From IMG/VR virus record IMGVR_UViG_3300025693_000001: 64,000 bases of DNA, one strand, 5' to 3'. This document shows positions 39,448-56,834 of the stretch, piece by piece. Positions within the stretch are counted from its first letter, which is position 1. Each line of letters begins with the position of its first letter. Made by a program: the position numbers and the translations under genes. The notes under the pieces were generated by a model. That model searched no databases, was not told where the DNA came from, and worked only from the letters and a program-made list of their open reading frames with translations. Source of the stretch: a virus (Duplodnaviria > Heunggongvirae > Uroviricota > Caudoviricetes).

Positions 39448-41757
39448 TTATGGTTGTGGTGTGCGATCATATAATGGTACATTAGCCACATTTACTTCTA
39501 TCGGTGTTGCAATTGGTGGTATGTTACCAGCGGAGAATACGAATTTGGTTGATGCCCTTCCGACCCGACCAACTTCTCGATATCCCCACGTCGATGGAGC
39601 CGGTGGATTGCCACCCGCTGTCCCATTTCCGTCATTTGCCTTGCCGCTATTAATGGATGCTGCTGGTATTGTGTATGTGTATGTCCGTCCACCTTCATCT
39701 GTTCCACCAATTATGGCTGCAAACAATGGAGTGTTAGCTCCACCATCACCATCAATCAACGTTACTGATGACTCAGCACCAGGGAACGATGAATAAAATG
39801 TTATGTGGGCATCTGTTACAGCAACACCAAACGGTGGGATAGCATCTGTCGACTGACCACTAAAATTAATCGGATTTGCGTCAGCGACTGTCAGCATCTC
39901 GCCAACCAACGACCCGATGTTACTCGCATTCGCCCCATCAACCAACACTGTAATCACACCCGAATCACTAGCCGTTCCAGCGTTTAGTTGTATTTGGAAC
40001 GCATAGGTAACAGCTGAACTCAATCCAGTTGGCATGCCTGGCCAGATTTGATCCGTGTCAGTCAGCACATCAACAACACCCATTGTTGCGTTCACTTCAA
40101 GAAAACCATACTCATCAGCGTATTGTTTAACACCATTCACGTACAGCTCCAAATTTCCGTAACCAGGCACATAATCATACCCCAAATCGCCGTGTGTACC
40201 AGATACTGAGTTTCCGATATCAACTTCACTAACACCTTTCGATGCTATTACCGCTCTATTCGGACGGCGAACCATATCACCGAGGGTCTTATTCAGATCA
40301 CCCAACACATTATCCAGAGGAATGTTTGGATATTCTGGATTGTCATAAAAAGCATGCTCAAGGTACAGATCGAACATCCCCTGAAACAGATTTGGTTGCG
40401 CAATTTGGTGGAATACCGAATCGGAGGTTGTTCCACCCGCAGCGAAACCAGCTACAACAATCTGTGGTAATCCGTTCGTTCTCGTTAGTGTTAATTCTTG
40501 ATTTATGTTATCGAAAAAGCCACCATTGACAACCCCATCACCCGATGCTGATATCGCACCAGCCAATTCAACATCAACGTATTCTTTCGTTGCTGCTTGT
40601 AAGTTTGTTGTTGGGTTGGAATTGAGGAACAAATTGCCAGACATTGTCCCACCTGTGGTGAATAGTACATTCGCGTTTGTTAAAAACGATGATGCTCCAA
40701 CATTCGTCCAAATGGCCCCATCGAATTGTAGCAGGTCATCCTCCGCGATGGGATCACCGTAAATGACATCATATAGATCTGTAACAATCGTGGGGATGGC
40801 AGCTTCTACATCAACCGCAACACCATCGACGTATGCTTTTGTTGCAGCGTCTTGTGCCGAAATCGGAGTTGTCACTCGTCTGATTAGGTTATCATTCATA
40901 TCGATTCCCACACCCCCACCAACAGCACTCACCATGGTGCCACCGGTCAACGGCAAGAATCCGGTATCACTACCCGTTTGGTTTCTCCAAATCGATCCAT
41001 CATATATCAACACACTACCCAATACTGGGGATGATAACTGAACATCTGTCAATTCGCCGAGTTCGTTGTTGGCAGCAATCTGCGTATCAACGTAACTTTT
41101 GTTTACAGCATCGCTTGTGTTGAATGGTGTTGCCAGATCAGTAACCGTAAATCCATTTGCTGATATGTCACCATACAATCCGGTGTTGTTCTGGATAAGA
41201 TATTCCCACCCCCCAATGTACTTACCGATTAGTCCCGATGGTGGTGCAGGTAACAACGACATTACTGTGTTACCGCTACTATCGATGGCAGATGTGGATA
41301 TCAGAAACTCACTCTGAGCATCTGTGGTACCAGCTTCAATGATCCGTAGTTGACTTCCAGGTACCAATCTAGCCGTCTCATCACCAACGATCGTAATGTA
41401 ATTGACAAGAGAATTGTGTGGAGCGACATTCGGTAGGATAACATGCTTACGTGTATTGAACACTCTCAGCACGTAGTCGTCTGTTGACCGGTCTAACCAC
41501 ACCTGCCCCCCGATCGGATATGTTGGTTCTATCGCACCAGCAAAATGCTCCATGGTGTGTAGGATATCTTCCTGTATTCGTTCGCCGTAGTTTGGTGAAC
41601 CCTTACCATGCAACAGCAAGCTTGTTGCAGCGGAAGCAGCTTTTGAGTCTAGTGTGTTGGTTGTTGGATTTTCTGGACCATTTGTAGTGTACGCGTTTAA
41701 CTGGAAACTGCGATTCTCATTTTTGTCAGTAAAATCAATTGTGTAGTTATTTGCCAT
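39448..41757 (-). CDS. tail fibre / baseplate-associated protein
   Basis: L.L.GKG..NYGE....E.FA, GQVW, repeated A(A/V)(T/N)K.YVD; CATAAATA upstream. Confidence 0.8.
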   Translation of the reverse strand: MANNYTIDFTDKNENRSFQLNAYTTNGPENPTTNTLDSKAASAATSLLLHGKGSPNYGERIQEDILHTMEHFAGAIEPTYPIGGQVWLDRSTDDYVLRVFNTRKHVILPNVAPHNSLVNYITIVGDETARLVPGSQLRIIEAGTTDAQSEFLISTSAIDSSGNTVMSLLPAPPSGLIGKYIGGWEYLIQNNTGLYGDISANGFTVTDLATPFNTSDAVNKSYVDTQIAANNELGELTDVQLSSPVLGSVLIYDGSIWRNQTGSDTGFLPLTGGTMVSAVGGGVGIDMNDNLIRRVTTPISAQDAATKAYVDGVAVDVEAAIPTIVTDLYDVIYGDPIAEDDLLQFDGAIWTNVGASSFLTNANVLFTTGGTMSGNLFLNSNPTTNLQAATKEYVDVELAGAISASGDGVVNGGFFDNINQELTLTRTNGLPQIVVAGFAAGGTTSDSVFHQIAQPNLFQGMFDLYLEHAFYDNPEYPNIPLDNVLGDLNKTLGDMVRRPNRAVIASKGVSEVDIGNSVSGTHGDLGYDYVPGYGNLELYVNGVKQYADEYGFLEVNATMGVVDVLTDTDQIWPGMPTGLSSAVTYAFQIQLNAGTASDSGVITVLVDGANASNIGSLVGEMLTVADANPINFSGQSTDAIPPFGVAVTDAHITFYSSFPGAESSVTLIDGDGGANTPLFAAIIGGTDEGGRTYTYTIPAASINSGKANDGNGTAGGNPPAPSTWGYREVGRVGRASTKFVFSAGNIPPIATPIEVNVANVPLYDRTPQP

Positions 41758-41796: not shown

Positions 41797-42246
41797 CTAT
41801 TTATGGAGGTTCGCGTTGGTAAAATAAGGATTCGGATTTAAGAAAAATTCTTGAAGGAAATAGTCGGTTGTTGCTTTGACTTGAGGCAAGTTGTATTGCA
41901 GACCGGTACCCAGTCGGGCGGTATTAATAATAGTATCGTATACGTCGGGATTCAGTTGATATGATTTGAAGTGCAAATCATTTCCAAACAGCAAGTTATC
42001 GTCCCGAATCGACGTATCAAACGGAACACCAAAATACAACTCCAGTAGATGCGAGTAAATGACAGCAACGGAATACGATTTAGCAGGGTATAGGATTTCG
42101 TGTGTAGCGTTACTAAAATAATCAATCGCGTGTTTAGCTAGTTGATCATCATCCATCTGTTTGACCGGCACATCAATGTTGACATCCGATGGATGTGGGT
42201 TCAAATGGTGGAATAGCTCCTGTCTTATTTTGTGGTCCGATACCAT
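41797..42246 (-). CDS. hypothetical accessory protein of the radical SAM operon
   Basis: last gene of the rSAM run, overlaps the upstream rSAM gene; YPAKSY motif. Confidence 0.7.
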   Translation of the reverse strand: MVSDHKIRQELFHHLNPHPSDVNIDVPVKQMDDDQLAKHAIDYFSNATHEILYPAKSYSVAVIYSHLLELYFGVPFDTSIRDDNLLFGNDLHFKSYQLNPDVYDTIINTARLGTGLQYNLPQVKATTDYFLQEFFLNPNPYFTNANLHK

Positions 42247-43163
42247 TCCAACAACCCCTTGAGTCCACTACACGATTCAACATCAAAGTTTTTAATTGGT
42301 CGCAAATGCTCACTCATGCACCTACCACGAAATTCACAATCACCACAATGTTTATTTGTATTGAATGTTAGATACTCATCCATTACCCACTTGAGGTAAT
42401 CAAACCAATCATACACTGGGAGGAAATACTCGTGGCCATTTCGATCAAATTCTAGTACAGCAAAGTCACCATCCGGTGTCACGTATATATGATCATCAGA
42501 CCAAGCATGACCCTTACCATCCAACACTCGGTTTATGTTCGATTCGGTAACAAATTCATAACCCCGTGACTCGATTGGACTTAATTCTATCCACCTGCGC
42601 ACAAATCCTTCATAATCTTTGAAAGATGTGTCATCGGTATTGGCTTGATTTGTTGAGTATGGTTTTATCTCAACAGATTGCAACTTGGGTAACGTGTTGC
42701 ACACCGATATAGCTTCCATCATTGTTGCATCGTCCCACTCAATCATTCCTTTGCTAGCCAACATAAGCACATGAAATGGTGTATCCAATGCCACCATGTT
42801 ATTCATGACTATGGTGTTTTGTTCACGTTCAGTGTAATCCCAGCTAACCGATAAATCGATATCAGGGCCTGACAACCACGCAGGAACGGTTGTTAGGTTG
42901 GTTATGACAGAAACCTTACCACTATAGTGGTTCCTGATTACATCGATGGTACCTTGTATATATTCACCGTCAAGCAATGTTATTTCACCACCATACAAAT
43001 CGACGTGGGTTATTTTCTTATATTTGGATATTTCTACCAACTTATCGTTCAGCACCGATAAGGGAAGCAACGTGGGGTCTTTTAGTTGGTCCTTGGATAA
43101 ATAACAAAACGAACAACGAAGATTACAACGCAAACAACTATTGATGGACACGGAAAATGACAA
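42225..43163 (-). CDS. radical SAM protein
   Basis: CNLRCSFC, LYGGE, TNL, C-terminal CxxC-x5-C..C; probable TTG start at 43163 with AGGTG RBS. Confidence 0.85.
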   Translation of the reverse strand: MSFSVSINSCLRCNLRCSFCYLSKDQLKDPTLLPLSVLNDKLVEISKYKKITHVDLYGGEITLLDGEYIQGTIDVIRNHYSGKVSVITNLTTVPAWLSGPDIDLSVSWDYTEREQNTIVMNNMVALDTPFHVLMLASKGMIEWDDATMMEAISVCNTLPKLQSVEIKPYSTNQANTDDTSFKDYEGFVRRWIELSPIESRGYEFVTESNINRVLDGKGHAWSDDHIYVTPDGDFAVLEFDRNGHEYFLPVYDWFDYLKWVMDEYLTFNTNKHCGDCEFRGRCMSEHLRPIKNFDVESCSGLKGLLEWYRTTK

Positions 43164-44044
43164 ACTATTACACCTATAAATTAATTGATCCCAGATCACA
43201 CAAACCCTTTTATGTTGGAAAAGGGAAAGGATCCAGAATGTACGAACATAAAACCAACCACTCAAAAAAACGTCACAAACGGTCAAACCCAATGAAGTGC
43301 AAACGTATTAAAGATATACTGGATGCGGGATATGATATTATATATGAGAAACACGAGATGTTCAACGAGGACGACGCATATGCAATGGAGAAACGGTTAA
43401 TCGAATCACTCGGGAAGATAATAGATGGGACTGGTATCCTTACCAACATCGCTGATGGAGGCTTGGGTGGTAACCCACCAAAAACACCAGTCGATCAATA
43501 CACACTTGGTGGCGACTTAATCGCGACATACTCATCCATCATTGACGCGAGTGAGCGAACAGGGATCAACGGACCAAACATATCATCGAGTATCACAAAC
43601 AGAAACACGAAAAACAAATCAGCCGGTGGATTTGTTTGGACGTACAGAGGGGCAGCATTCGCACCCCCATCACCAAAAACAAACTGCAAAACTGTGTTTC
43701 AATTTGACACCACCGGCTCGATAACAGCGGAATACCACTCATCCGCCCAGGCATCAACAGTGTCGGGTGTTGATCGAGCTGGAATCATTAAGTGTTGTAA
43801 CAGTACCCAACGAACCGCTGGAGGGTGGCGGTGGTCGTATGATGCAGTTGCACCAAAGAACACGAGAAAAAGCGAATCATTAACGAAACGTGTTTGTAGG
43901 CTGTCCCTGTCCGGTGGTATCACGATAGAGTACGAATCACTAAAGGACGCCAGTATAGCGAATAATATTCCAGTTTCTGGCATATCAACATGCTGTCACA
44001 ATCAGACCAAGTCGAGAGGTGGGTTTCGCTGGAAATTTATTTGA
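43157..44044 (+). CDS. GIY-YIG homing endonuclease with three NUMOD1 repeats
   Basis: YTYKLIDP..PFYVGKG..R..H, E..LI, LTN..GG; 3x V.Q....G.....Y.S...A....G.....I...C......GG(F/W).W. Confidence 0.88.
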   Translation: MTNYYTYKLIDPRSHKPFYVGKGKGSRMYEHKTNHSKKRHKRSNPMKCKRIKDILDAGYDIIYEKHEMFNEDDAYAMEKRLIESLGKIIDGTGILTNIADGGLGGNPPKTPVDQYTLGGDLIATYSSIIDASERTGINGPNISSSITNRNTKNKSAGGFVWTYRGAAFAPPSPKTNCKTVFQFDTTGSITAEYHSSAQASTVSGVDRAGIIKCCNSTQRTAGGWRWSYDAVAPKNTRKSESLTKRVCRLSLSGGITIEYESLKDASIANNIPVSGISTCCHNQTKSRGGFRWKFI

Positions 44045-45113
44045 ATCCTGGTTTGTTGGTTGGAATTTGATTTTTGTTTGTTTCTATGATATCAGAAGCT
44101 AGACTTTTCATCAACGTACAATGATCTTCAACGATGTTTTCATCTTTCATATCTTTGATGGTTTTGCGACAACCGTTGCAGATACTAAACATTGGACACG
44201 CATAACATTCTGTTTTTAATGCGGCGAGTGATAAATCATCATCCAGTGGAGTGGCTGGCGTATCCGAAGACATTTCTTTCTCGAAGTTAATCGGTTTGTC
44301 GCGATCATCACCAAAAGCCCCACAACTATAGAAATCACCACCTGGGTTTATGGCACGGATTCCCCGATCGCAGTTACGCGATTGTGGACAAGTGGTACTA
44401 CCTTCGTACAATCGACGTACCATTTGCTTGGTGTTGTATTCCCAATCAATTAGCCCCTCATTGTATACATCCAGATATATTTTATATATTTTCGATAACT
44501 GATATGATGTCGATAAATCGCCAGAGGCCATACCGTAATTAAGTTTACACTCAACCCCCATCCGTTTTGCTAATCGAACATTATCGATTGCGGTGTCTTC
44601 GTTTTCATCAGTGATAACAGAAATGAAATCCGGTCGGTATCCGATGTGTTCAAGAAATGAATTCGACACATCCCAAAAGTCGTTCTCGGTGAATACTCTA
44701 GTTGGTGTTATCCTACGGGTATCCCCATAATTAAACGACGTGGTAACACCAACGCGTTCATGTTTAAATAACTCGATCCATGGTGTAGGGTTTTTAAGAA
44801 AAGGCCACAGATTCGATGTAAACGATAACGTAGCTGGCATATCATTCGCATCCAAAAACGCAATTATATCCCAGTAGTATTTTGGTTTAATCATCATCGG
44901 ATCACCCCCGTTTATAATGAGGGTGTTCGTTTTTGGGTATTTGCGTAAAAACGTGAAGATGTATTCCAAATCAAGAACACGGAAATGTTGGTCCGATATC
45001 ATAGTTGAACTACAGAATGTACAAGCAAAATTGCAGGCTTCCGTGGGTTTAATGATGAACTCCATTGGAGCATTATGTTCGACTATTTTTATCTGATTAA
45101 GTTTTGTTATCAC
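44037..45113 (-). CDS. radical SAM/SPASM protein
   Basis: IIKPT..CNFACTFC, NGGDP, SPASM-type Cys set (CPQ..C, SC, CxxC-x5-CxxC, C). Confidence 0.9.
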   Translation of the reverse strand: MITKLNQIKIVEHNAPMEFIIKPTEACNFACTFCSSTMISDQHFRVLDLEYIFTFLRKYPKTNTLIINGGDPMMIKPKYYWDIIAFLDANDMPATLSFTSNLWPFLKNPTPWIELFKHERVGVTTSFNYGDTRRITPTRVFTENDFWDVSNSFLEHIGYRPDFISVITDENEDTAIDNVRLAKRMGVECKLNYGMASGDLSTSYQLSKIYKIYLDVYNEGLIDWEYNTKQMVRRLYEGSTTCPQSRNCDRGIRAINPGGDFYSCGAFGDDRDKPINFEKEMSSDTPATPLDDDLSLAALKTECYACPMFSICNGCRKTIKDMKDENIVEDHCTLMKSLASDIIETNKNQIPTNKPGFK

Positions 45114-46297
45114 AAAATACCTTTACTGTGTGCGAATTCATGGTGTTTTTTGTTCCCTTGAGCTATCTCATCTGCGGTGGTATATCCACCCCAGTCGTAT
45201 ATATCATACGTCAAGTTTCCCATATTCTTCGGGTACATATCAAGGACTTTTTTTGGTAACATACAATCCACGATGTCGTACTGTTTCATATAATATAGCA
45301 CGTGTCTGGATACACACGTATCCAAATAGCGACAATCCTCACACTCGGTGGTACCAGATGCATACGCATATTGGGTTTTTTTCGATTCGGTAGCCATCGC
45401 AATCAAATCATCAACCGTGTATTCACCGTCGTGTGGCACTTTAAAAGCTTCCGTCGTGTTTGCAACATTCTCATGTATGAATGGACTCAGATATACTTCA
45501 CCGTCAGACAAAATCCAATTTGAATAGTTGTGTCCACCATGAGACCAATCTGCCACAACCATTTGAATGTCTAACCGATTGGATGGGGTTACTTGACGCT
45601 CAAGCTCGTTATTCCAGTGCCGGATCATGGTTCTAACTGTTCTGGGTTCATGCGAACGAAAGAACGATGGGTTGTAATCTATGATCGTATTAAACTGGTC
45701 CATAGCCAACAACGACATAGTATGCAACGATATCCCTGTCAATTTTTGGATATTAATCTGCATCGTGTAACAGACTCTTGCAGACATAGCATCGAATAAT
45801 CGTATTTTGTGTTTGAGATCGTCCAGGTAATCTTGGTTGTCGGTATTGAATTTTTTCGGATGCACAACTACCTGAATTTCAAACTCCATATATTCGTGTG
45901 GATAATACTCATTAAACAATTCAATAAAATCTAGAATCGTTTGATCATCACACATTAGTGTGGTCGGGATGGCAAAAATAGGTTTATGCTTGGCCATAAA
46001 TTGCTGGAGTTTTGGTTCCATCAACAACTCTTTTGCATTTACAGCTCCGAAGAAGTCAACCGGCCCAATTACAAGCTCATCGAATAGCATACCCGCGTCA
46101 TTAACCTCTTGGGCCAACTTCTCGAGAAGATCCAAATCTCGTTGTGTGTATGGAGTGTTACCTTTGTTGACGAAGCAACCCCGACAGCTATGCACGCAAG
46201 TGGTCAGAAAATCTGCAGTAGCTCTGTGGGCTACTACAGGTTTTGTTGCTGTCTCTGATGTTTTTTCGTAAAGTAAATTATTTGTTATTATCGGCAC
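45110..46297 (-). CDS. divergent radical SAM protein (paralog 3 of 3)
   Basis: CVHSCRGC; GPVDFF; PSFFR; CxxC-x5-C..C. Confidence 0.8.
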   Translation of the reverse strand: MPIITNNLLYEKTSETATKPVVAHRATADFLTTCVHSCRGCFVNKGNTPYTQRDLDLLEKLAQEVNDAGMLFDELVIGPVDFFGAVNAKELLMEPKLQQFMAKHKPIFAIPTTLMCDDQTILDFIELFNEYYPHEYMEFEIQVVVHPKKFNTDNQDYLDDLKHKIRLFDAMSARVCYTMQINIQKLTGISLHTMSLLAMDQFNTIIDYNPSFFRSHEPRTVRTMIRHWNNELERQVTPSNRLDIQMVVADWSHGGHNYSNWILSDGEVYLSPFIHENVANTTEAFKVPHDGEYTVDDLIAMATESKKTQYAYASGTTECEDCRYLDTCVSRHVLYYMKQYDIVDCMLPKKVLDMYPKNMGNLTYDIYDWGGYTTADEIAQGNKKHHEFAHSKGIL

Positions 46298-47417
46298 AAC
46301 GTTTTATGCGGGCAGTGGTTGAAGGGGTGGTGCTTGTGTTGTATAAGTCCAGAATTTCTTTTGGATATACACACTCGGTTATGTCTTTTGCTTCCATGAA
46401 ACTCAGCACATTTCTACCAACACACGTTGGTAAGTAGTGACAAGTTGTACACTCATCCGTCTTAGTCACGTACGCAAACTGTTCGGCTATTAGCCTGTGG
46501 TTTGTATCCATCACTTCATCAACGGTTGTTCCAGTTTCCATCGAAGGATAATCGAATAATATCTGTTCATATATAAACGGACTGATGAACATTTTATTTT
46601 TCTTGTAATTAACTACAATCGTATTCATCACATTGTGACTTTGATCAGCTATAGTTAGCATGATATCTTTGTAGTTTGCTTCTGAAATTGTGGCACGTAG
46701 AAACTCTTTCCACACATCCAGGTGAGCTGATATTAACTTATCATTACCCGTACGAAAGAACGATGGTAAGAATTCAATAATAGTATCAAACTGTTCACGA
46801 ACGATTTGAGTTATCTTATCGTAGTGTGTAATCATATCGACGTCATGATGCACGTTTACAGCGAATGACCAATCCACCACTTTTGGTGTTTCATGCTTGA
46901 GATAATGCAGAGCTTTGCTAAAATCTTTGTAGTATTGTTCGTCTCCACTCAACAACAAGTCAACATCCAACGGCACCAACAACTCGATAATCATATCCGA
47001 TCTGTATTTTGATGGGTCATCCAATATAGCAAAAACGGCATCCCATTGTTCTTGGTCGACTTTATGGAACATCGCAGTTGTTGTTATTCTGGTTTTGGGG
47101 TGTATGCTTAACAATTCTTGAAACTTTGGATTGTCAAGAACTTCAACAGCATTCGATGCACTGAATATATCTGTTGGCGAAATGATAACCTCGCGGAACC
47201 GTAGCCCACGTTCGTTCATGTTATGTGCTAGTGTTAATGCAGCATCCAAATCAACATCGTTGATATCGTTGCGTCGGTTTACGAAGCAACCAGGGCAAGC
47301 ATGCGCACAATCACGCAATACTTCAAGATTTAATACAAAATCCATGGTGTGATCGTCCCATCCTGCGGCAACATTGGGGGTGCTTTGTAGTGTAAATAAG
47401 TTTGGTTCAATGCTCAT
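46278..47417 (-). CDS. divergent radical SAM protein (paralog 2 of 3)
   Basis: CAHACPGC; SPTDIF; PSFFR; CxxC-x5-C..C. Confidence 0.8.
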   Translation of the reverse strand: MSIEPNLFTLQSTPNVAAGWDDHTMDFVLNLEVLRDCAHACPGCFVNRRNDINDVDLDAALTLAHNMNERGLRFREVIISPTDIFSASNAVEVLDNPKFQELLSIHPKTRITTTAMFHKVDQEQWDAVFAILDDPSKYRSDMIIELLVPLDVDLLLSGDEQYYKDFSKALHYLKHETPKVVDWSFAVNVHHDVDMITHYDKITQIVREQFDTIIEFLPSFFRTGNDKLISAHLDVWKEFLRATISEANYKDIMLTIADQSHNVMNTIVVNYKKNKMFISPFIYEQILFDYPSMETGTTVDEVMDTNHRLIAEQFAYVTKTDECTTCHYLPTCVGRNVLSFMEAKDITECVYPKEILDLYNTSTTPSTTARIKRCADNNK

Positions 47418-47456
47418 GTGGGTAGATTCTCCTGAAAGCTGTGGTATATGTGCGTG

Positions 47457-47464
47457 TATTTATA
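47457..47464 (-). promoter_or_regulatory. T4-type late promoter TATAAATA inside the rSAM operon
   Basis: exact box in the only sizeable intergenic gap between operon genes, 40 nt before ATG 47417. Confidence 0.6.
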
Positions 47465-47503
47465 CTAATAGATCATCTACTATACCCAACCCATCACGAT
47501 AGG

Positions 47504-48622
47504 TCAAATATATTTGGTGCCATCCCATATGTTATCTCTCGGAACGATGCAATCTATTAGATCTCGACTCTCCATGTAAGCTATAACATTACGACCAATA
47601 CAAGACGACAACAGATTACAATGTGCACACCCTGTTGTCTGTGAGGCGTACATATACTGAGATGTGACTAACTCTCCTAGCTTTTTTGTGATATCATCTG
47701 CTGTGTGTGGTTTATCGATCTTGAATATTTCATTTGTTTGAGGTATACCATCAAACAAATACGGCATCACATACAAATCTCCATCCTTGTACGATAGGTT
47801 TATGAAGCCCTCACCACCAAAATATTTATCAAACATATTGAAACTCACGTACTCAGGTAGTGGTTCGTCTGGTGGTAATTGTGCAACTAGCATAGTTTTA
47901 AACGCAGACACCCGACGTTCCACCATGTCAGTTGAATTCGATCGAAAGAAACTTGGTATGATCCGTAATGGCACGTTAAACTCTTCGTGTATCTTTTCTG
48001 CTACCGCAAGTAACGTAGTACCATTAAACATCTGGTCGTGATAATTAACCACAAACACCACGGTATCCTTTGCAAATAAGCACAAATGTTCGGTAAGTTT
48101 ATCGATGTATTCCCGATCGTTACTCAGGTATTTCGCCAGATCAAACGCAACAAACAACTCAAAGTCTCGAGCTGCTGCATTGTTCAAATGTTTTTGCAGG
48201 GTGTGCCATCTCATCTTTAGCGTTCTGGTATCGCACATCAGGGTGGAGCTAGCACTAAGGGAGAAATTTGATGTAAGTTCATACATCAGAGGATTGTCCA
48301 TTATCTCGTCGAAATTCGTTGCTGTGAAAATATCCGTTGGTCCGATGAATACTTCTTCGCACGCCACAGACATACTTTGAAGCGTATCAGCGATTGCAAT
48401 GGCTGACGATATGTCGTCTGGAGTACATGTGTTCCGTCTGGGTATGTAACACCCAACACAATTGAAAGCGCATCCATCTAGTATGTCCAATACCAGTTCG
48501 GACCGTAGCATATCCGTGTATTGTAGTTTTGCGGGATTGTGTGGTCCGATCGTTGCGGATCCGATATCACCAATATTGACACCATCTGATAGTGTTTCTT
48601 TTTGGTAGGTGTTCATTTTCAT
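47504..48622 (-). CDS. divergent radical SAM protein (paralog 1 of 3)
   Basis: CAFNCVGC; GPTDIF; PSFFR; CxxC-x5-C..C. Confidence 0.8.
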   Translation of the reverse strand: MKMNTYQKETLSDGVNIGDIGSATIGPHNPAKLQYTDMLRSELVLDILDGCAFNCVGCYIPRRNTCTPDDISSAIAIADTLQSMSVACEEVFIGPTDIFTATNFDEIMDNPLMYELTSNFSLSASSTLMCDTRTLKMRWHTLQKHLNNAAARDFELFVAFDLAKYLSNDREYIDKLTEHLCLFAKDTVVFVVNYHDQMFNGTTLLAVAEKIHEEFNVPLRIIPSFFRSNSTDMVERRVSAFKTMLVAQLPPDEPLPEYVSFNMFDKYFGGEGFINLSYKDGDLYVMPYLFDGIPQTNEIFKIDKPHTADDITKKLGELVTSQYMYASQTTGCAHCNLLSSCIGRNVIAYMESRDLIDCIVPRDNIWDGTKYI

Positions 48623-49734
48623 TGGGTGGTACGTATCCCCTTTGTTGTGTAGTCAAAAAATGCACGCATGGTGCAATCACTCATGTTTCTATCTCTAATT
48701 TTCCAATCATGCTGGGTAAAACATCTAAATCCACACCGCTTGAAGTATTCACACGATAAGCAACCATGCTCATCCATAAAGTTCTGCATCATCCCAGCAT
48801 TATCGGCTTTATTGTAAGTGGTAACAAAATCGGATTGATCATATCGGTTCCATCTACAATTCGATGTTGAACCATCCGGAAATATTGTTATTTTGTTTAA
48901 CGACAAACAATGCATCTGGTTTTCGGTATTCTCGATCAGTTCTCGTATTGGTGATATCAGTGGGTAGTTATCCGCCACAAAAGTATACCAATCATATATC
49001 ATCCGATCGGATGGAATCTCATCACTAAAACCTTTATCCGGAATGTAGTCATCGAAGTACACCGGAAATGTTGCGTATAGCCACTTGAAATACTCATCAC
49101 CATCTTGCATAAAATTGGTGATGGACGATACCGTACCGACACAATTGATAGACAAGATGTATTCTGGTCCAAAAAACTTCACATTGTCTCGGTATCGATT
49201 CGACATAGGACGTCCATCAAAATCGTATGATGCAATCAGATGGGTGTCAATGTTTAATGATCGCATCCGATCGATAAGTGACTTTACCAGCTCGATTTTT
49301 TTAAACAGAAAATTACTAACCCACACGACTTTCATTGTGTGTCCATACAAATCGAATATGGGTTTCAGTTTCTGCATCAATCGCCAATATGCGTCAATTA
49401 ACTGCTCCATTTGTTGATCTTGGAATAATTCACCACCAACCACATTGATCTGCATATAGTCGACGGTATTCTGTTTCTCTTTCAGAAATTGTTCTATTGT
49501 TGGTATCTTATCAAACATATCCTCGTCCGACATACCAACAATAGAATCTTTATCATGGTGACAAAAATCACACACGATGTTGCAGTTTTCGAACAACGTT
49601 AGTTCGATTTCTCCATTAACGGGACGTTTCGTCTCTAATATTTGCTTGGTTGTATCGGATGGGACTGATGGTGTAATTCCAATTGCCGTAATATCAGCAA
49701 TTGGAATTATGGGGATAGTCTTATACTGCGTCAT
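48619..49734 (-). CDS. radical SAM/SPASM-like protein
   Basis: CNIVCDFC, VGGE, SN, C-terminal C..C..CLSC-x5-CGFRC..C. Confidence 0.87.
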   Translation of the reverse strand: MTQYKTIPIIPIADITAIGITPSVPSDTTKQILETKRPVNGEIELTLFENCNIVCDFCHHDKDSIVGMSDEDMFDKIPTIEQFLKEKQNTVDYMQINVVGGELFQDQQMEQLIDAYWRLMQKLKPIFDLYGHTMKVVWVSNFLFKKIELVKSLIDRMRSLNIDTHLIASYDFDGRPMSNRYRDNVKFFGPEYILSINCVGTVSSITNFMQDGDEYFKWLYATFPVYFDDYIPDKGFSDEIPSDRMIYDWYTFVADNYPLISPIRELIENTENQMHCLSLNKITIFPDGSTSNCRWNRYDQSDFVTTYNKADNAGMMQNFMDEHGCLSCEYFKRCGFRCFTQHDWKIRDRNMSDCTMRAFFDYTTKGIRTTQ

Positions 49735-50494
49735 CTGGTATTGGTAGCATTGCCTGCATATCGATCATCAGTTGTTTAATCTTATCGCCCGCCACTGTAT
49801 CACCGGCGTCCATTTCAGCGGCAAGAGTTATTAACCCAGCGTAAGCGCTTTTGTCGTTGAACACGTACGAGAATATATTACCACCGTTGAACATATATTC
49901 ATCAAAATACCGCGTGTAGTATATTTGATCGGATAATGGAATGTTTGTGCATAAGTAAGCCATCAGAAAATCTTTAATAGTAAACAACTTAACAACGGAG
50001 TATCCGATCTCATCAAATTGTTCATCAGTGACAGTAGTAATTAATGTATCATGCAGTGGTCCAAATTCTTCTCCCTCACCGGCACCTAGCTTGGTTAACA
50101 TGTACAGGGGGATGGAATTAACAAATGCCATCTGTGGTATCAACAAAGAGTGATGCTGTGTTGCAAAGTCGATACACTCATCGATGGACCACAAGTGGGG
50201 ATGATCAGTATAAAACATGTCGCCATGCTTGGCTAATCCTAAAATATTCGCATGTGTAATCTTTAAGTTTTGCACTTCTGAAAATTCCTTAAGCCGCATG
50301 TACTCATCCATGAGTTCGTGCGTGATCACGTCAATGTTGCAATTCAGCCCCAAATTAGCAATGTACATTAATAGAAATTTCGGATTTGATAGATTTGCAA
50401 GTGATGCATGATAATCTATCAAATATGCCTGGTTTTTATCCTTAAAGAATTCCACCATATCGGTGGGTGTTAATGGTAATACTATTTTTTCCAC
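49721..50494 (-). CDS. hypothetical accessory protein of the radical SAM operon
   Basis: 257 aa; GTG start with AAGG RBS; overlaps the next gene. Confidence 0.75.
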   Translation of the reverse strand: MEKIVLPLTPTDMVEFFKDKNQAYLIDYHASLANLSNPKFLLMYIANLGLNCNIDVITHELMDEYMRLKEFSEVQNLKITHANILGLAKHGDMFYTDHPHLWSIDECIDFATQHHSLLIPQMAFVNSIPLYMLTKLGAGEGEEFGPLHDTLITTVTDEQFDEIGYSVVKLFTIKDFLMAYLCTNIPLSDQIYYTRYFDEYMFNGGNIFSYVFNDKSAYAGLITLAAEMDAGDTVAGDKIKQLMIDMQAMLPIPDDAV

Positions 50495-50510: not shown

Positions 50511-51725
50511 TTATTGTGTTCTTCGTTTCTTCGGTTCACTCCAAAGACTTGGAATGGTCGTAGATGCAAACTGAGAGTATGATTTAACTGAATCGATATT
50601 AGCCATCATTGCTTTTTTTGTTTTGAATTTATCAGACGTAACGATTATTTCATCGTTATCATCGACCAGTTCCCACATCCATTTATCAGCTATGTGTTTG
50701 GTTACAAACGTACCGGCAGTTTCTTCACCAGTCGGATACAATGTAGTCAATAATAATGTGTTAAATTTCTGTCCCGCTCCACTTATAAAATCGTGCTGAG
50801 AGAATGGTATAATGTTATTGATGACCAAGTCAACGTCACTCGTCTCAAACAAACGGTAGAATAAATCGTGTTCATACAAATGTCGTGGGTGTTCCTCGGG
50901 ATAATCAATATCATTCGTCACGCACAATCTAGTCCAATCTTTGATCCGTTCCAACAACACAGGGTCATTGAAGTCCAGACTCTTTGGGTTAAAGAACAAA
51001 GCTCGTAGTAGTGCATTGTTTTCGATGGCAGCGATGGCCTCACCGATGGAATCCAAAGAATCAGCACCCAAGAATGTAGCCAAGACCTTGCGATCAATAG
51101 CCATGTCGTTCCTGATATTGAGAGTGACCGCATGCACCAGACCTCGCAACATGGGTGTAGCAATTGCTGACACTTTTGTGTCGGCTATTGATTTTTCTAT
51201 GTATCCATTTTTGTACAGATACAATACATACTCCAATGGTAGGTCTTGTGGGTTATCCACCAAACCACCAACTGCCGTATACAAACCTGGTTTCAGCAAT
51301 CGGTATGCATCACCGATATCGTATGTAACAGGTCGCCCAACGAAGTAATTTTTTAACTGTTGAATGCTTAACAATTCCGTCATGTGCTCTTCAGATATTG
51401 CATACCGTACTTGCAGCTCTATCAACATCATGGCAAACAATCGAGCATAGTCATCATCACGCGATACGACTATCCATAATTTGGTTTCTGTGCTTAACCA
51501 ATTATAAAAATCGGTATCACTTCCATTGAATTCCAACGCTATCATTTCCAGATAGCTGTTGAACTGCATCACCACCCCTTTTGCGTTGGGGTTATTTGCA
51601 TCCGCTCTAATCATTTCATCAATAGGTGTATCACTCGGTGTTAACACCACTGTGCGGTGTTCACCTGATAGAACGTGAACATCCTCGGGATATGTCACAT
51701 AAATGCTGTTTCGTATATTGAACAT
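50511..51725 (-). CDS. hypothetical accessory protein with C-terminal YegP/DUF1508-like domain
   Basis: start MFNIRNS, TAATG-coupled to the precursor; C-terminal W.W.L...N.EII.TS..(F/Y)..K......I.SVK. Confidence 0.7.
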   Translation of the reverse strand: MFNIRNSIYVTYPEDVHVLSGEHRTVVLTPSDTPIDEMIRADANNPNAKGVVMQFNSYLEMIALEFNGSDTDFYNWLSTETKLWIVVSRDDDYARLFAMMLIELQVRYAISEEHMTELLSIQQLKNYFVGRPVTYDIGDAYRLLKPGLYTAVGGLVDNPQDLPLEYVLYLYKNGYIEKSIADTKVSAIATPMLRGLVHAVTLNIRNDMAIDRKVLATFLGADSLDSIGEAIAAIENNALLRALFFNPKSLDFNDPVLLERIKDWTRLCVTNDIDYPEEHPRHLYEHDLFYRLFETSDVDLVINNIIPFSQHDFISGAGQKFNTLLLTTLYPTGEETAGTFVTKHIADKWMWELVDDNDEIIVTSDKFKTKKAMMANIDSVKSYSQFASTTIPSLWSEPKKRRTQ

Positions 51726-52309
51726 TAGCGTCTTCCTCTTGCGCTGTGGCACACACTATGGCAACTGCTGTGGCAATAGCTAATTGTGGCATCTGTTTTG
51801 TTTGAATTTGTGGTAATAACGCCACGCAATGATGCTATTACAGCCTCATAATTTGAGCGATCGATGGAATCTGCATTCCCAATGTTGTCATATGCTCCGC
51901 CTGGTGCACCATCACTAGCCGTTAACACGCCTGGACTGGTTTTATATGCGGTCCGAGTGTAATCTGCTTTCACACCCGAAGTATTTCCATTGCCCCATGA
52001 TGATCGTCTGCGGTGGAATGTAAATATTCGCGTCTTACTGTACAAACTCAGAAACGAATTTAGCGTTGCTACCAAATTACCACTACCAACGCTACTCGTC
52101 AACGATGATGTAGCGATGTTTGTTGGTATTGACACTCCCAGTGATACACCAGTAGCAGCTGCTCGCGATACATCAGTGCTATTTGCAATAGCAGGTGATC
52201 CAGGGGTTAATTCAGTAGTCGCTTGTTGACGTAGTGTTGTAACACCACCCACAGCTGATGTTGAGCTTATCAACCCACCCCATATTGTTTTTGTTATTTC
52301 ATTTGCCAT
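51725..52309 (-). CDS. candidate rSAM substrate: Ser/Thr-rich protein with C-terminal (CHSx)3-RGRR
   Basis: ends YCHSSCHSVCHSARGRR; all three Cys are in this tail; directly downstream of an rSAM/SPASM gene. Confidence 0.75.
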   Translation of the reverse strand: MANEITKTIWGGLISSTSAVGGVTTLRQQATTELTPGSPAIANSTDVSRAAATGVSLGVSIPTNIATSSLTSSVGSGNLVATLNSFLSLYSKTRIFTFHRRRSSWGNGNTSGVKADYTRTAYKTSPGVLTASDGAPGGAYDNIGNADSIDRSNYEAVIASLRGVITTNSNKTDATISYCHSSCHSVCHSARGRR

Positions 52310-52321
52310 GTTGCAATCCTT

Positions 52322-53401
52322 TTATTCCTGTCCCATAAACCCACCTAGTATTGTTTTATACAGGGGTATATCGTTATCGTTTTTCATTTTGGTCATCATG
52401 GTTTTTGGTGCAGCACACACGTTACCTTGCCAAGCCAATTGGTGACAATCACCATTACACACGTCATATACCGGACAAATAGAACAAGCTGGATGTCTAA
52501 TTATCTCAGCGGATATGTTACACATTCTACCTTCGCTAGTCATCAGAGCCTCGACGTCGTCGTGGATCGTACCAAATGTGTTGTCTACGGCTGAGTTTGG
52601 GCAGCCTCCGATTGATCCATTTGCGTTGATGGTTAGTATCTTTTGTTCACACTCTCGGCACCGACACCCTGCATGTGCATTGTGTACTAAACTCGTTAAT
52701 ATTGAATCGAAAAACATGTTATCGATAAATTCCCAAGTCTTGTGTTCCAGTGTTTGTTCCCACAACTTCAAAAACCACATATCTAGCGCTTCATTCGACG
52801 GCATTATACCCTGTTCAATGAATTGCAATGCGTTACCATTTGGGGTTACTCGCTCGAAGTTAATGTGGTTAATACCAAGGCTAGCCATATCACGTATAAT
52901 GTCAATTGGCTCCATGTGATTTACAACATCACCAGACAGGCAAACCATTACCGTGATATCATACCCATCGTCAGTTAGCTGTTTCACATTATCTCGCCAC
53001 AGCTGTTCTTGTTTCGGTTTTGGCCATCGGATATTCTTGTCCCAAGAGGTACCAAACGATTTCCCACATATTTCATCAAACACGCGAATTTTATCCGGTG
53101 TCAGTGGATAGGTCAGGTTCGTTTGCACTGACCACCATATGTTTGGCCATAAGTCCTTTACCCCATTCCAAACATCGAATAGTTTTTCGGTGGGAGCGAG
53201 CATCGGCTCACCACCATGGAACGATATGTTACCATGGTCATAGTTCGGGTTGTATTCGTGCAAGCGTTTGAAGAATGCTACAGTTGCGTCAACATCGAAC
53301 CACCCCTTTCGCCCATTGTGACCATTAGTAAAGCAGTGGTCACAATGCAGGTTGCAGGTATCGGTGGTTTTTAAGTAACACATGAAATCGTTAGTTGCCA
53401 T
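52322..53401 (-). CDS. radical SAM/SPASM maturase
   Basis: LKTT.TCNLHCDHC, FHGGEP, QTNL, SPASM C..C, GCPN, CxxC-x5-CxxxC..C. Confidence 0.92.
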   Translation of the reverse strand: MATNDFMCYLKTTDTCNLHCDHCFTNGHNGRKGWFDVDATVAFFKRLHEYNPNYDHGNISFHGGEPMLAPTEKLFDVWNGVKDLWPNIWWSVQTNLTYPLTPDKIRVFDEICGKSFGTSWDKNIRWPKPKQEQLWRDNVKQLTDDGYDITVMVCLSGDVVNHMEPIDIIRDMASLGINHINFERVTPNGNALQFIEQGIMPSNEALDMWFLKLWEQTLEHKTWEFIDNMFFDSILTSLVHNAHAGCRCRECEQKILTINANGSIGGCPNSAVDNTFGTIHDDVEALMTSEGRMCNISAEIIRHPACSICPVYDVCNGDCHQLAWQGNVCAAPKTMMTKMKNDNDIPLYKTILGGFMGQE

Positions 53402-53417: not shown

Positions 53418-54584
53418 TTATGCAGAATACAGAGCTGGCCACACTTGGACCCATCCTGTTCCCGCTAAGTACATTTGTATTGTTGCTCCAACCGCTTGAG
53501 TATCCCCTGTTTGAGCGGGTTGCCCTTTGCCGGTCGGATTGTATTGCATAAAATCACCAGCAGCAACTTTATCATCTACATAACCCTTCGTCGATGCTTC
53601 ATACGTTGATACTGGGTGTCTACCTAATGTTAGCGTTGCTGATCCATTCATAGAATCACCAGCTCGACTGATCTTATCGTTCAGTTGCGTTTGAACATTA
53701 CTGGTCAACCCAACGTTAAAATTTGTTTCACTTGCCGTTAGTGTTGGTAGATCCAACGCATCCAAGTAAGCGTTCTGCAACGATGTTAGATGAACAATTT
53801 CGTCGGATAAATGGGTTCCCATATCCCCAACAAAGTCGTCAAACGCTTTTTTGTGCATTGCATCATATGGATCAACAGGATCACCCAAATTGATAATTCG
53901 GTGTCTCGCTGTAACTCCAGCATCATCCCCACCCATATCCAATTCACCACTCATCCAATCACCACACTGTCGTAGAAAACTTTCTCCGACTAACACGAAA
54001 CCATCAGGAGCCGCTTCAGTGTGGTTTGGGTTGTATATCTTCAATAGTGGTTCAGTGATACAACCATTTGTATCTCCAGCGATACTGGTATCATACCACA
54101 AATCCCCAACTGTTGGGTTTGCGGGTTGTGCGGTGTTAACATATATACCAGATGTTACCTTCCATAATGGTACAGGTGGGTTATTTTCAACCCCCAGATC
54201 ATCCAATATGTCTGCGTCATACACGTATAACAACCGACTAGTAACATTATACCACAATTGCCCGTCGAGGGGAACTGTTATCCCATTTCCTGGTCCCAAA
54301 TCATTCGCATCTTTGGGTAGAATGGGGCTTGTTGTTGGGTCATAATCATATGACCCAGTAGATGGATTGTAATCACCTGCTTGTTTTTCAGGGCAGTTGA
54401 AATTCTCTGCCAACCTATAGACGTTCTCGTCCATTCCCTCACCCCACTGTAATGCTCCCATGCCGTATAACCGCATGTCACTGTCGTGGTGTGTACTTCC
54501 AGGGCCATTCAATGCTCCTGGTTTTATAGTAAGACTTTTTGAAGAAGCTCCATCTGTACTATCGATAACATAAACTGTTGCCAT
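53418..54584 (-). CDS. tail fibre / baseplate-associated protein
   Basis: LYG.G...WGE...EN.YRL.ENF, GQLWY, GDLWYD, STKGYVD; CATAAATA at 54623-54616. Confidence 0.8.
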   Translation of the reverse strand: MATVYVIDSTDGASSKSLTIKPGALNGPGSTHHDSDMRLYGMGALQWGEGMDENVYRLAENFNCPEKQAGDYNPSTGSYDYDPTTSPILPKDANDLGPGNGITVPLDGQLWYNVTSRLLYVYDADILDDLGVENNPPVPLWKVTSGIYVNTAQPANPTVGDLWYDTSIAGDTNGCITEPLLKIYNPNHTEAAPDGFVLVGESFLRQCGDWMSGELDMGGDDAGVTARHRIINLGDPVDPYDAMHKKAFDDFVGDMGTHLSDEIVHLTSLQNAYLDALDLPTLTASETNFNVGLTSNVQTQLNDKISRAGDSMNGSATLTLGRHPVSTYEASTKGYVDDKVAAGDFMQYNPTGKGQPAQTGDTQAVGATIQMYLAGTGWVQVWPALYSA

Positions 54585-54618: not shown

Positions 54619-55197
54619 TTATGCGGTTATAGAATCCAACAAATTACCAAAGTCGGAAATAGCTGTTTTTATTTCCGTGCTTGTTGCTGACGCATTAATA
54701 GCGACTTGTGTTTGTAACCGATATTGTTCCACTAAAACATTATACCCCAACGTGGCATTATACTCAGCTATAATATCATCAGCAGCAGCTGTTGCTGTTT
54801 TTGATAATGCTATAACATCCCCCGCTATGAATGGGTATGGTGTTGTATCAACAGGATATCCAGCGGCTTTATATGCTAGAGCTTGTGTATTCTTTTCCAA
54901 ATATACCAAATTCTGAATAGCATGTTGAGTGATTTGTTGCGTGCGATGTTGTTCTGCAGATGCATTGATACTCGATATTGCTAGTACCTTATCTGCCGCC
55001 AGTGTGTAGTTGGGATCATCTATTTCCACCCACGGTCCAACACCATTCGTGTACGTAACTAACTTACCCTTACCAACGGATATTGGTTTTTCGATTGTGT
55101 ATCCTGCTATACCAGTTTTATTAGTAGCAGATCGTGATACTCCAACGTACGTGTAATCGGTTGTGTCGAATTTATAAAATGTGTATATAGTGATCAT
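54619..55197 (-). CDS. probable tail-fibre assembly chaperone
   Basis: start reassigned to MITIYTF (ATGA-coupled to the fibre gene); helical C-terminal half typical of fibre-adjacent chaperones. Confidence 0.6.
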   Translation of the reverse strand: MITIYTFYKFDTTDYTYVGVSRSATNKTGIAGYTIEKPISVGKGKLVTYTNGVGPWVEIDDPNYTLAADKVLAISSINASAEQHRTQQITQHAIQNLVYLEKNTQALAYKAAGYPVDTTPYPFIAGDVIALSKTATAAADDIIAEYNATLGYNVLVEQYRLQTQVAINASATSTEIKTAISDFGNLLDSITA

Positions 55198-56789
55198 GAG
55201 AATATCTGTACCTCTAACGTGGATTCTATGTTTGGATCTGCAACAGGATTGTAATCCTGTGTGGTGTTCAATCTCGTATTCTGACCGGCGTTGAGTGATG
55301 AATTGCGTGCCATAACACGGAACGTATATGTTGTGTTTTGTTGAAGCGTTCCTGACGCCATTGGGCATATGCTGTACGTGAGTGAGCTTGCATCGTTTCC
55401 CTCTGATGATTTTGTGTCAATCACCGTGAGTGACGCGTATTCTCCACCAATCACACCCAACTCCCAATACGTCGGATTGTATGATTTACGGTGATGCACA
55501 TTCAACGCGCTCTTGACAACGAAAGTTACCGGTGCGCTTGTAACCACCACATCAACATCGAAGTTGGGAATGATAGTGCTCGTCGATGCAACAACATCAT
55601 AATATGATGCGTATGCTATGGTTTGAAGATCAATTAACCTACCATCACTCGGTTGTCCTGTTAATTGGTTATCGACGTACTGTTTAGTTGCAGCTTCTAA
55701 CGGAATTATGGGATCGTGGGCAAGTAATACACCCCCACCCGACATTTGAATATTTCCGGTCGAGGTGGTTGTTCCGGCTAGACGCACGCTTTTAAAAAAC
55801 CAAGCATCTTCACCAATCCGTAACATAGGTGTCCCGAATGGATGGATCGTCATGACATTCTTAACACCACCACCACCGTAATTGGTTGTGAAAGCTAACT
55901 CCCCAGCATTGGTGTATTCAATCTGGATATTACCACCTTTGGTGTATGAGCTACCAGCATCGAATATAACAGATTTGGCTGTACTAGACACATCGAATGA
56001 CAGGTTACCTGTCATGGTATCCCCAGATAACGCGACATACGCACCACCACCGCCACCACTGGCTACAGAATCAACGTATTGTTTTGTGGCAGCATGTAGC
56101 GCGTTTGTGGGGTTAGCATTCAGTGTCAAATATCCCGACATAATGTCACCAACTTTTGCCACAGCATTGCTACCGATGGTGTCCGCATATTGTTTTGTAG
56201 CGGCGTGTAAAGCATTTACGGGGTCGGCGTTTAGGGTTAAGTACCCCGACATGATGTCACCACTCAAGCTAACGTATCCGCTACCGGATGAAGAGGCCAA
56301 AGCCACCCACACACTACCATTGTAAAAATTGATCAGATTTGTTGAGCCGTCATACCACAGATCACCCAACAATGGGGTAGTTGGTTTCGTTGTGCTAGAT
56401 GAAGCGGTGTTCCGCCAATACCCAACAACAGGATCCGCGTTTGGATCGATGGGAGCATAGATGTATAGTTTGCCATCCGTTTTGTTGAACCACAATTGCC
56501 CTAGGACGGGACTGTTGATACCCAGACCAGCAGTTTCAGTTGTGTTTCGTGGAGTTGGGGATGTTGTGTCAAGTGGGTCGAAAGTTGCATTTTGATCCAC
56601 TGCAAAGTTTTCCAACAAACGATAGAAATTTTCGTTGAATCGTTCACCCCAACTAGGCGTTGCATTGCCGTATAGTGTTAGGTCAGTATTTGATTGCACC
56701 CCACCAGTCCCATCGAACGTACGGGGTTGGATAGCAAAGGTGGTTCCACCATCGGTGCTATCTATTAAATAAATTGTTGTATTAGCCAT
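55194..56789 (-). CDS. tail fibre protein
   Basis: start MANTTIY; WGE.FNENFYRLLENFA; repeated GD.M.G.LTLNA.P..ALHAATKQY.D. Confidence 0.82.
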   Translation of the reverse strand: MANTTIYLIDSTDGGTTFAIQPRTFDGTGGVQSNTDLTLYGNATPSWGERFNENFYRLLENFAVDQNATFDPLDTTSPTPRNTTETAGLGINSPVLGQLWFNKTDGKLYIYAPIDPNADPVVGYWRNTASSSTTKPTTPLLGDLWYDGSTNLINFYNGSVWVALASSSGSGYVSLSGDIMSGYLTLNADPVNALHAATKQYADTIGSNAVAKVGDIMSGYLTLNANPTNALHAATKQYVDSVASGGGGGAYVALSGDTMTGNLSFDVSSTAKSVIFDAGSSYTKGGNIQIEYTNAGELAFTTNYGGGGVKNVMTIHPFGTPMLRIGEDAWFFKSVRLAGTTTSTGNIQMSGGGVLLAHDPIIPLEAATKQYVDNQLTGQPSDGRLIDLQTIAYASYYDVVASTSTIIPNFDVDVVVTSAPVTFVVKSALNVHHRKSYNPTYWELGVIGGEYASLTVIDTKSSEGNDASSLTYSICPMASGTLQQNTTYTFRVMARNSSLNAGQNTRLNTTQDYNPVADPNIESTLEVQIFS

Positions 56790-56834
56790 AGGATTCGTAT
56801 TCCTCAAAGTATTACGATATCCCGTATTTATACG

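Follow-up and report, generated by a model that had tools for sequence, protein, structure and literature searches.

The question that this locus raises is why a small protein of a jumbo phage ends in three evenly spaced Cys-His pairs, and why its gene stands beside genes for radical S-adenosylmethionine (rSAM) enzymes. The protein, hereafter T, is encoded on a stretch of 64,000 nucleotides (the window) from a virus of the Caudoviricetes, IMG/VR record IMGVR_UViG_3300025693_000001, and had been singled out as a candidate substrate in an examination of the letters alone (hereafter the sequence-only reading). We propose, with a probability of roughly 0.6, that T is an accessory protein of the virion and that its free C-terminal tail serves as substrate for the adjacent rSAM/SPASM enzyme, R, and perhaps for other oxidative enzymes encoded in the same gene module. 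The features on which this proposal turns are as follows.

51725..52309, minus strand: T gene, 194 amino acids, predicted globular alpha/beta domain (residues 1-179) followed by a C-terminal (CHxx)3-RGRR tail
51728..51775, minus strand: tail codons, CHSS-CHSV-CHSA-RGRR, residues 179-194, with the stop codon at 51725-51727
52322..53401, minus strand: rSAM/SPASM enzyme R, 359 amino acids, anSME-like, 12 nt upstream of T

Translated from the minus strand, T terminates in ...ISYCHSSCHSVCHSARGRR-stop, and the plus-strand frame over the same positions is broken by many stops, i.e. the coding strand is the minus strand. The start codon is supported by an AAGGA Shine-Dalgarno sequence 8 nt ahead of the ATG and by an N-terminus, MxNE(V/I)TKTIWGG, that is kept among homologues, and the stop codon overlaps the ATG of the downstream gene (TAATG). 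The composition is as the sequence-only reading had described it: Ser, Thr, Gly and Ala account for 94 of the 194 residues (48 %), and the last 16 residues hold all three Cys (positions 179, 183 and 187) and three of the four His (99, 180, 184 and 188), with an exact four-residue period. The pattern CH..CH..CH arose in none of 200,000 shuffles of the protein and is met with a single time when the entire window is translated in six frames; such a tail is far from anything expected by chance. The three repeats of the window protein read HSS, HSV and HSA, the +2 Ser of an HxS unit being retained in the first repeat only.

T belongs to a large, unnamed and essentially phage-only family. A profile search of 1.84 billion representatives returned 126 clusters at 50 % identity, in which nearly all matches were 166-265 amino acids long and extended to the C-terminus, and the family was also found at more than 130 IMG/VR loci. 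Among 185,579 prokaryote species genomes, T was found on five contigs of metagenome-assembled genomes only (L088-L092, labelled Bdellovibrio-like); the same phage module is visible on four of them, which are therefore binned phage contigs or prophages, and the fifth, L090, is a 5.4-kb fragment with no recognisable neighbours. Pfam and NCBIfam offered no family for 141 members, as only three isolated chance-level hits (E 0.003-0.008) were obtained, each in one member, and no NCBIfam model matched the window protein. The sole library match of T was PHROG 35144, of unknown function, and a literature search found no description of the family.

The tail is by far the best conserved part of these proteins. 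It is invariant in nine close homologues (55-79 % identity to T). In an alignment of 110 full-length members, neither the three Cys and three His nor the terminal RR vary; R-4 and G-3 are present in at least 90 % of these proteins, and Ser predominates at +3 in repeats 1 and 3. Conservation among homologues, on which the sequence-only reading had made its proposal depend, is thus nearly complete. The family consensus is CH[SA]S-CHS[SN]-CH[GS]S, with HxS in repeats 1 and 3. Columns outside the tail have a mean identity of 12-14 %, and tails are 75-88 % identical where the bodies are 22-69 % identical. At the invariant residues, synonymous codons vary freely (TGT/TGC, CAT/CAC, AGY/TCN for Ser, AGA/CGN for Arg), which indicates that selection acts at the protein level. 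Variant tails exist, i.e. tails that have lost RGRR (ending ...CHGSI/L), tails with four or five CHxx repeats and tails with a degenerate third repeat (CHSNCYAN...RVRR); they are carried by loci L034, L036, L045, L065 and L068 and by family members P0095, P0109, P0091, P0126, P0029 and P0122. A search for longer or fused proteins bearing the tail, which counts as weak evidence, found none.

Linkage to rSAM genes was counted over 80 IMG/VR loci, 70 of them distinct. An open reading frame ending in the T tail was present at all 80; an rSAM gene lay directly upstream of T in 56 of the 70 distinct loci and within -3 to +4 genes in 69; the intergenic spacing at rSAM-T loci runs from -26 to +29 nt. 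Gene order of the window module was retained in two distant metagenomic contigs. According to neighbour clustering, the canonical module starts with a VrlC-like giant protein, a small virion protein and a tail fibre with an intramolecular-chaperone domain; it continues with a cupin/JmjC-like protein (HxD..H), R, T, the partner proteins B240 and A376 and at least one further rSAM, and ends with an optional B12-rSAM and 2-oxoglutarate (2OG)-Fe(II) oxygenases, then R9 and i136. T is the sole universal non-enzyme member bearing a conserved flexible motif. Its near-universal, operon-tight association with rSAM/SPASM genes makes it the most plausible rSAM substrate of the module, and the earlier proposal of a candidate substrate was strengthened accordingly.

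Among cultured phages, the R type and B240 matched exactly the same 15 of 50,697 records, namely Atu_ph07, Phosso, RSL2, RSF1, the FLC phages, RsoM3USA, SURPRISE13 and pPa_SNUABM_DT01, and in each of the four lineages read the T gene was flanked by those of R and B240. These carriers were reached only via the rSAM and B240 proteins: tblastn against INPHARED with P0001 and a marine T gave no match, nor did megablast of the 15-kb region. Carriers include phiKZ-related phages (PMC5468394) and Rak2-like phages (PMC6102473). Since T4-like marine phages carry the module as well and the window phage itself has T4-like replication genes, the module is a mobile cassette. A variant module comprises two tandem short T genes (126-138 amino acids) with near-identical tails and no R-type rSAM (L050, L064/L071, L077, L082, L084); at these loci R6-type rSAMs are adjacent to T or a few genes downstream, and the two T copies have different bodies, an arrangement that can be likened to multi-precursor clusters.

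R reaches or exceeds the cutoffs for Pfam Radical_SAM and for the TIGR04085 SPASM domain. C16/C20/C23, GGEP, C248/C251/C267, C306/C309/C315/C319 and C329 are invariant in 48 orthologues, a Cys complement that suffices for three [4Fe-4S] clusters, i.e. the rSAM triad plus eight SPASM Cys, which can fully ligate two auxiliary clusters. Among NCBIfam models, anSME gave the best match over the full length (residues 13-321 of R against 8-326 of 363), at 52.8 bits compared with a 349-bit cutoff (TIGR03942). The orthologues are about equally near DynA, PapB, DarE, YhhB, CbpB, HxsB, FxsB, QhpD and the CXXX-repeat-target family, all far below cutoff, and the YhhB, FxsB and AmcB models match the N-terminal core only. 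By sequence, relatives in the PDB are 8vpo, anSME, CteB (5wgg, E 2.8e-8) and ChlB. All the models that R matched describe peptide- or protein-modifying SPASM maturases; on these similarities R is assigned to this class and to no characterised family. Two general marks of an rSAM/SPASM system are present at the locus, namely the enzyme motifs and a conserved co-localisation with a candidate substrate carrying a core motif. Prediction of a complex of R with T residues 140-194, three 4Fe-4S clusters and S-adenosylmethionine scored 0.44, 0.02 and 0.10 for a mark of 0.32, which gave no verdict and was not used as evidence.

An AlphaFold2 (AF2) model of T built on 141 sequences reached a mean predicted local distance difference test score (pLDDT) of 86.8 and a predicted template modelling score (pTM) of 0.83, and replaced an unusable run on a 10-sequence alignment (pLDDT 33). 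In this model residues 1-179 form an alpha/beta domain whose last strand (172-179) continues directly into the tail. The sequence-only reading had found the N-terminal part, of about 175 residues, much longer than a normal leader; because that part is confidently folded, it is a body and not a leader peptide, followed by 15 flexible residues. The tail itself has a pLDDT of 55-58, and is therefore probably a flexible appendage on the folded body. No fold relatives were found in the PDB with Foldseek, in an exhaustive VIA-align search (best Z 4.0, solved fibre structures included) or in the ESM Atlas (TM score at most 0.32), and a search of the viral structures of BFVD with T returned family members only. 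Three larger BFVD proteins of Myoviridae sp. ctijX18 (A0A8S5USJ7, A0A8S5USJ8 and A0A8S5USV2, 504-660 amino acids) weakly resemble the T fold (Foldseek probability 0.25-0.85) and may be fused or expanded relatives. Judging from these models, the T family is a new fold family with a sharp C-terminal motif.

Published proteomics places a T homologue in virus particles. In purified Atu_ph07 virions, gp170 (31.89 kDa) was identified by eight unique peptides with 35 % coverage, in gel bands 1-9 with a peak in band 1 (PMC6102473, Table S5), and the translated Atu_ph07 homologue of T has exactly this mass. The rSAM proteins gp171, gp168 and gp165, the B240 protein gp169 and other small neighbours were not detected in these virions (PMC6102473). 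T is thus probably a virus-particle protein, as the sequence-only reading had surmised from its appearance. Published work on AP-J-162, FLC6, SURPRISE13 and RP12/RP31 held no usable proteome data for T. The gel behaviour of gp170 is unusual for its size: for other Atu_ph07 proteins near 30 kDa the maximum is in bands 7-8, and apart from gp170, those peaking in band 1 have masses of 76-139 kDa, except for two poorly sampled entries (one or two peptides; PMC6102473). Much of gp170 therefore runs as a heat- and SDS-stable high-mass species. As the gel loading buffer lists no reductant (PMC6102473), disulfide bonding, a different covalent linkage or stable oligomerisation could each underlie this species; its migration is the one experimental hint of a covalent modification, and an ambiguous one.

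The two parts of T also evolve differently. In 99.6 % of locus pairs the divergence of the body outpaces that of R, and in 77 % that of B240, and such a fast body with a fixed tail would fit a conserved, enzyme-recognised peptide carried on a rapidly adapting structural or host-facing domain.

In the mechanism that we favour, T would be a structural accessory protein of the tail-fibre/host-recognition module of large myoviruses. Its tail would be modified late in infection by the rSAM/SPASM enzyme encoded just upstream, and probably also by further rSAMs of the module, being presented as a free C-terminal peptide whose basic RGRR-COOH end would likely serve as a register or anchor element. Radical hydrogen abstraction would install one modification per CHxx repeat, the most plausible products being Cys thioether rings (sacti-, ranthi- or QhpC-type) or His-to-C-beta cyclophanes (triceptides); for the latter, the H-x-[S/N/A/V] units are chemically compatible with the crosslink from an aromatic or His residue to the +2 C-beta that 3-CyFE rSAMs (YhhB, FxsB or AmcB type) make. 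The outcome would be a rigid, possibly metal-binding or covalently cross-linking end-piece, and mature T would enter the particle while the enzymes and the B240 and A376 partners would be left behind. The T4 late-promoter consensus TATAAATA occurs four times in the window for 4.8 expected and is not enriched, so that this motif lends the late timing no statistical support; one copy lies inside the module (47457-47464, minus strand).

Several points weigh against this proposal. We infer the tail modification, the enzyme responsible and the chemistry from genomic association, and since R falls below every curated family cutoff, its chemistry is not inferable by homology. No match to a recognition element of ribosomally synthesised and post-translationally modified peptides (RRE), or to a PqqD-like domain, was found in R, B240, A376 or i136, and R starts directly with its rSAM core. 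In the lineage that lost RGRR, R differs at one column only, with no compensating rSAM change, an observation from a single lineage. Other enzymes of the module could act on neighbouring fibre proteins instead, the strict invariance of both His and Cys would also fit a pure metal site, and the high-mass form of gp170 could reflect ordinary disulfides of free tail cysteines, which would argue against thioethers.

The leading rival is the metal site. Here the tail would stay unmodified and its three Cys-His pairs, on a flexible or helical C-terminus, would bind Zn, Fe or Cu, maybe stacked in an oligomer as in fibre tips, so as to anchor or stabilise T, and the rSAMs would act on other proteins, e.g. 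the fibre proteins. Both residues are invariant at a fixed i/i+4 spacing, the tail has helical turns in both AF2 models, the gene of T, a virion protein, lies next to fibre genes, and a high-mass gel species formed with no listed reductant fits free thiols. Repeated-His metal sites are known in T4 fibre tips, although the HxH motif is absent from the CHxx tail of T. This explanation would also leave unaccounted for the extreme C-terminal placement of the motif, the invariant RGRR, the +3 Ser held through AGY/TCN codon switches and a near-obligate, translationally coupled rSAM/SPASM linkage across unrelated phage lineages; we consider it unlikely. We hold at similarly long odds a covalent staple made by the rSAM enzymes, by which radical chemistry on the CH repeats would irreversibly crosslink T to a fibre or baseplate protein or to itself; the peak of gp170, at only 32 kDa, in the uppermost part of an SDS gel loaded with boiled Atu_ph07 virions would then be accounted for.

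Two further explanations fare much worse. That T is a long-leader precursor of a ribosomally synthesised and post-translationally modified peptide (RiPP), whose tail of about 16 residues would be modified, cleaved and released as a bioactive or metal-chelating peptide, would agree with the RiPP logic of a short conserved C-terminal core beside SPASM maturases and with the proteusin-like enzyme set of marine modules (rSAM, B12-rSAM, 2OG oxygenase). It is nevertheless highly improbable given the confidently folded N-terminal part, the 35 % coverage of a homologue in virions and a module without any recurring protease or exporter family, in which the sole peptidase-like match is the intramolecular-chaperone domain of the fibre. 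We give equally scant credence to T as a helper, i.e. an Fe-S or iron carrier or an electron donor serving the rSAMs through its Cys/His tail. Several metallochaperones do have a flexible C-terminal tail rich in Cys and His attached to a folded domain, and the module requires many [4Fe-4S] clusters; genes for Fe-S assembly, too, are found in T4-like marine phages that have many rSAMs (PMC5332604). T, however, is in virions and the rSAMs are not, its body evolves faster than would be expected of a conserved enzyme partner, and its tail is fixed to the residue whereas metallochaperone tails usually vary in length.

Comparison with known systems places the proposed substrate-enzyme pair near several rSAM/SPASM pathways and inside none of them. 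In the QhpD/QhpC system, the rSAM/SPASM gene lies directly upstream of that of a small substrate, which receives several Cys-based crosslinks and is retained as an assembly subunit. The QhpD model was matched by 16 of the 48 R orthologues, but R is far below its cutoff and T is unlike QhpC, which belongs to a periplasmic enzyme and not, as T does with its C-terminal CH-repeat target, to a phage particle. CrpC/CrpA of Methanococcus (ranthionine; PMC13692751) likewise involves a protein-sized substrate with Cys modified by an adjacent SPASM rSAM; CrpC, however, has RRE and N-terminal engagement domains, which R does not share in the case of the RRE, and CrpA is Cys-rich throughout whereas the three Cys of T are all in the tail.

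The sequence-only reading had invoked SCIFF peptides and His-Xaa-Ser systems as analogies. The likenesses hold, i.e. the CxxxCxxxC period, whose spacer residues are small or polar, as for SCIFF/CteB, and the consensus HxS in repeats 1 and 3; membership fails in both cases. The SCIFF precursor has about 45 residues and six Cys (TIGR03973), whereas T is a folded protein of 194 residues with three Cys, each followed by His; SCIFF/ranthipeptide membership was rejected because T has no NCBIfam match and R scores 23.4 bits against the 425-bit TIGR03974 cutoff. The HXS anti-phage system relies on an effector of about 200 residues with tandem HxS repeats that is matured by an rSAM (+8 Da on SHRSS) and acts at phage DNA entry (PMC13128918). 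The HxsB model was weakly matched by 37 of the 48 R orthologues (best E 2.9e-11). HXS is bacterial, though, and HxsA has N-proximal repeats without Cys, a signal or processing region and a peptidoglycan-binding domain. HxsABCD membership was excluded, as the ten module proteins scanned had no HxsA, HxsB or HxsD match and the only Hxs match among them was HxsC, at 23.1 bits against a 267.9-bit cutoff, on the rSAM at 44037-45113. It is a possibility that the bacterial HXS defence and the phage T module are evolutionary counterparts.

anSME resembles R in size, in lacking an RRE, in its eight SPASM Cys and as best full-length match, and its target C/S-x-P/A-x-R is loosely like the third T repeat, C-H-[GSA]-[SA]-R. 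The +2 position is however Ser in the window protein and Gly or Ser in 77 of 110 members, not Pro or Ala, and in repeats 1 and 2 the +4 residue is Cys instead of Arg. Conversion of Cys to formylglycine on the T tail, which this likeness would suggest, is a weaker option, and anSME/sulfatase membership was discarded on the score of R and because T has no sulfatase domain. Two other candidates were set aside: a c-type haem (CX3CH) reading of the tail, as T is made by a phage in the cytoplasm and has no maturation system, and a T4 gp37-type metal-binding fibre tip, in view of the missing HxH and the lack of a solved-fibre match for the body.

The rSAM/SPASM maturases described so far act on small RiPP peptides and on a few cellular proteins (QhpC, CrpA, HxsA, sulfatases), and our literature search found none with a protein of a virus particle as its substrate. 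Of the numerous rSAM genes in marine T4-like and jumbo phages, earlier work has said only that they form unexplained cassettes or consume Fe-S (PMC7029224, PMC5332604): pelagimyophages carry such 'radical SAM cassettes' in their host-recognition cluster (PMC7029224), and one T4-like marine genome has 12 rSAM genes (PMC5332604). The T family offers a concrete, universally linked candidate substrate with published virion evidence, turning an old annotation puzzle into testable biochemistry, for which cultured carriers exist (Atu_ph07, RSL2/RSF1, the FLC phages and pPa_SNUABM_DT01); T is ORF068 in RSL2 and PA10_00065 in pPa_SNUABM_DT01. If our proposal is correct, phages invest heavily in post-translational chemistry at their host-recognition apparatus, with up to seven rSAMs in the window; rSAM-matured proteins as such are already known, and what would be new is the setting, a virus particle, together with the fold and the motif. 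Should the staple exist, it would be the first enzyme-installed radical crosslink in virus-particle assembly, on a horizontally mobile host-recognition cassette.

The remaining genes of the window module, together with the fibre genes that flank it on both sides, are listed below.

55194-56807 and 39448-41757: tail-fibre-like paralogues
53418..54584, minus strand: tail-fibre-like protein, 388 amino acids, phrog_15511 N-terminus, directly upstream of R
50511..51725, minus strand: 404-amino-acid protein with a C-terminal DUF1508, function unknown, holding the A376-type partner position
49721..50494, minus strand: B240, 257 amino acids, phrog_20767, universal non-enzymatic module partner
48619..49734, minus strand: second rSAM/SPASM, 371 amino acids, phrog_1802
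45110..48622, minus strand: three tandem R6-type rSAM-like paralogues, phrog_31457, of 372, 379 and 395 amino acids, each with CxxxCxxC
44037..45113, minus strand: rSAM/SPASM, 358 amino acids, phrog_1802
43157-44044, plus strand: GIY-YIG/HNH-type homing endonuclease, phrog_314 and phrog_20162, within the series of minus-strand rSAM genes, two of which it overlaps at their ends
42225..43292, minus strand: R9-type rSAM, 355 amino acids, usual penultimate module gene
41797..42246, minus strand: i136, 149 amino acids, usual last module gene; the L020 representative of its family matches phrog_20737

The co-directional order is thus fibre-like protein, R, T, the 404-residue DUF1508 protein, B240, rSAM, three R6 copies, rSAM/SPASM, R9, i136 and fibre-like protein. 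The module partners had no fold recognisable by sequence, and searching the ESM Atlas by feature with B240 and with the 404/413-residue partner gave nothing informative beyond DUF1508. Marine modules add a B12-binding rSAM, 2OG-Fe(II) oxygenases and a cupin/JmjC-like protein in which an HxD..H triad is conserved (L024 12977-14668, 14670-15191 and 8108-8557; L020 12112-12741); none of these three was present among the scanned open reading frames of the window module. The start of the 404-residue gene is most likely the ATG at 51725-51723 rather than the GTG at 51752, and the ESM Atlas protein begins at that Met. The R6-type family occurs in only 17 loci, often in two to four copies, and its tandem paralogues in the window suggest a lineage-specific expansion.

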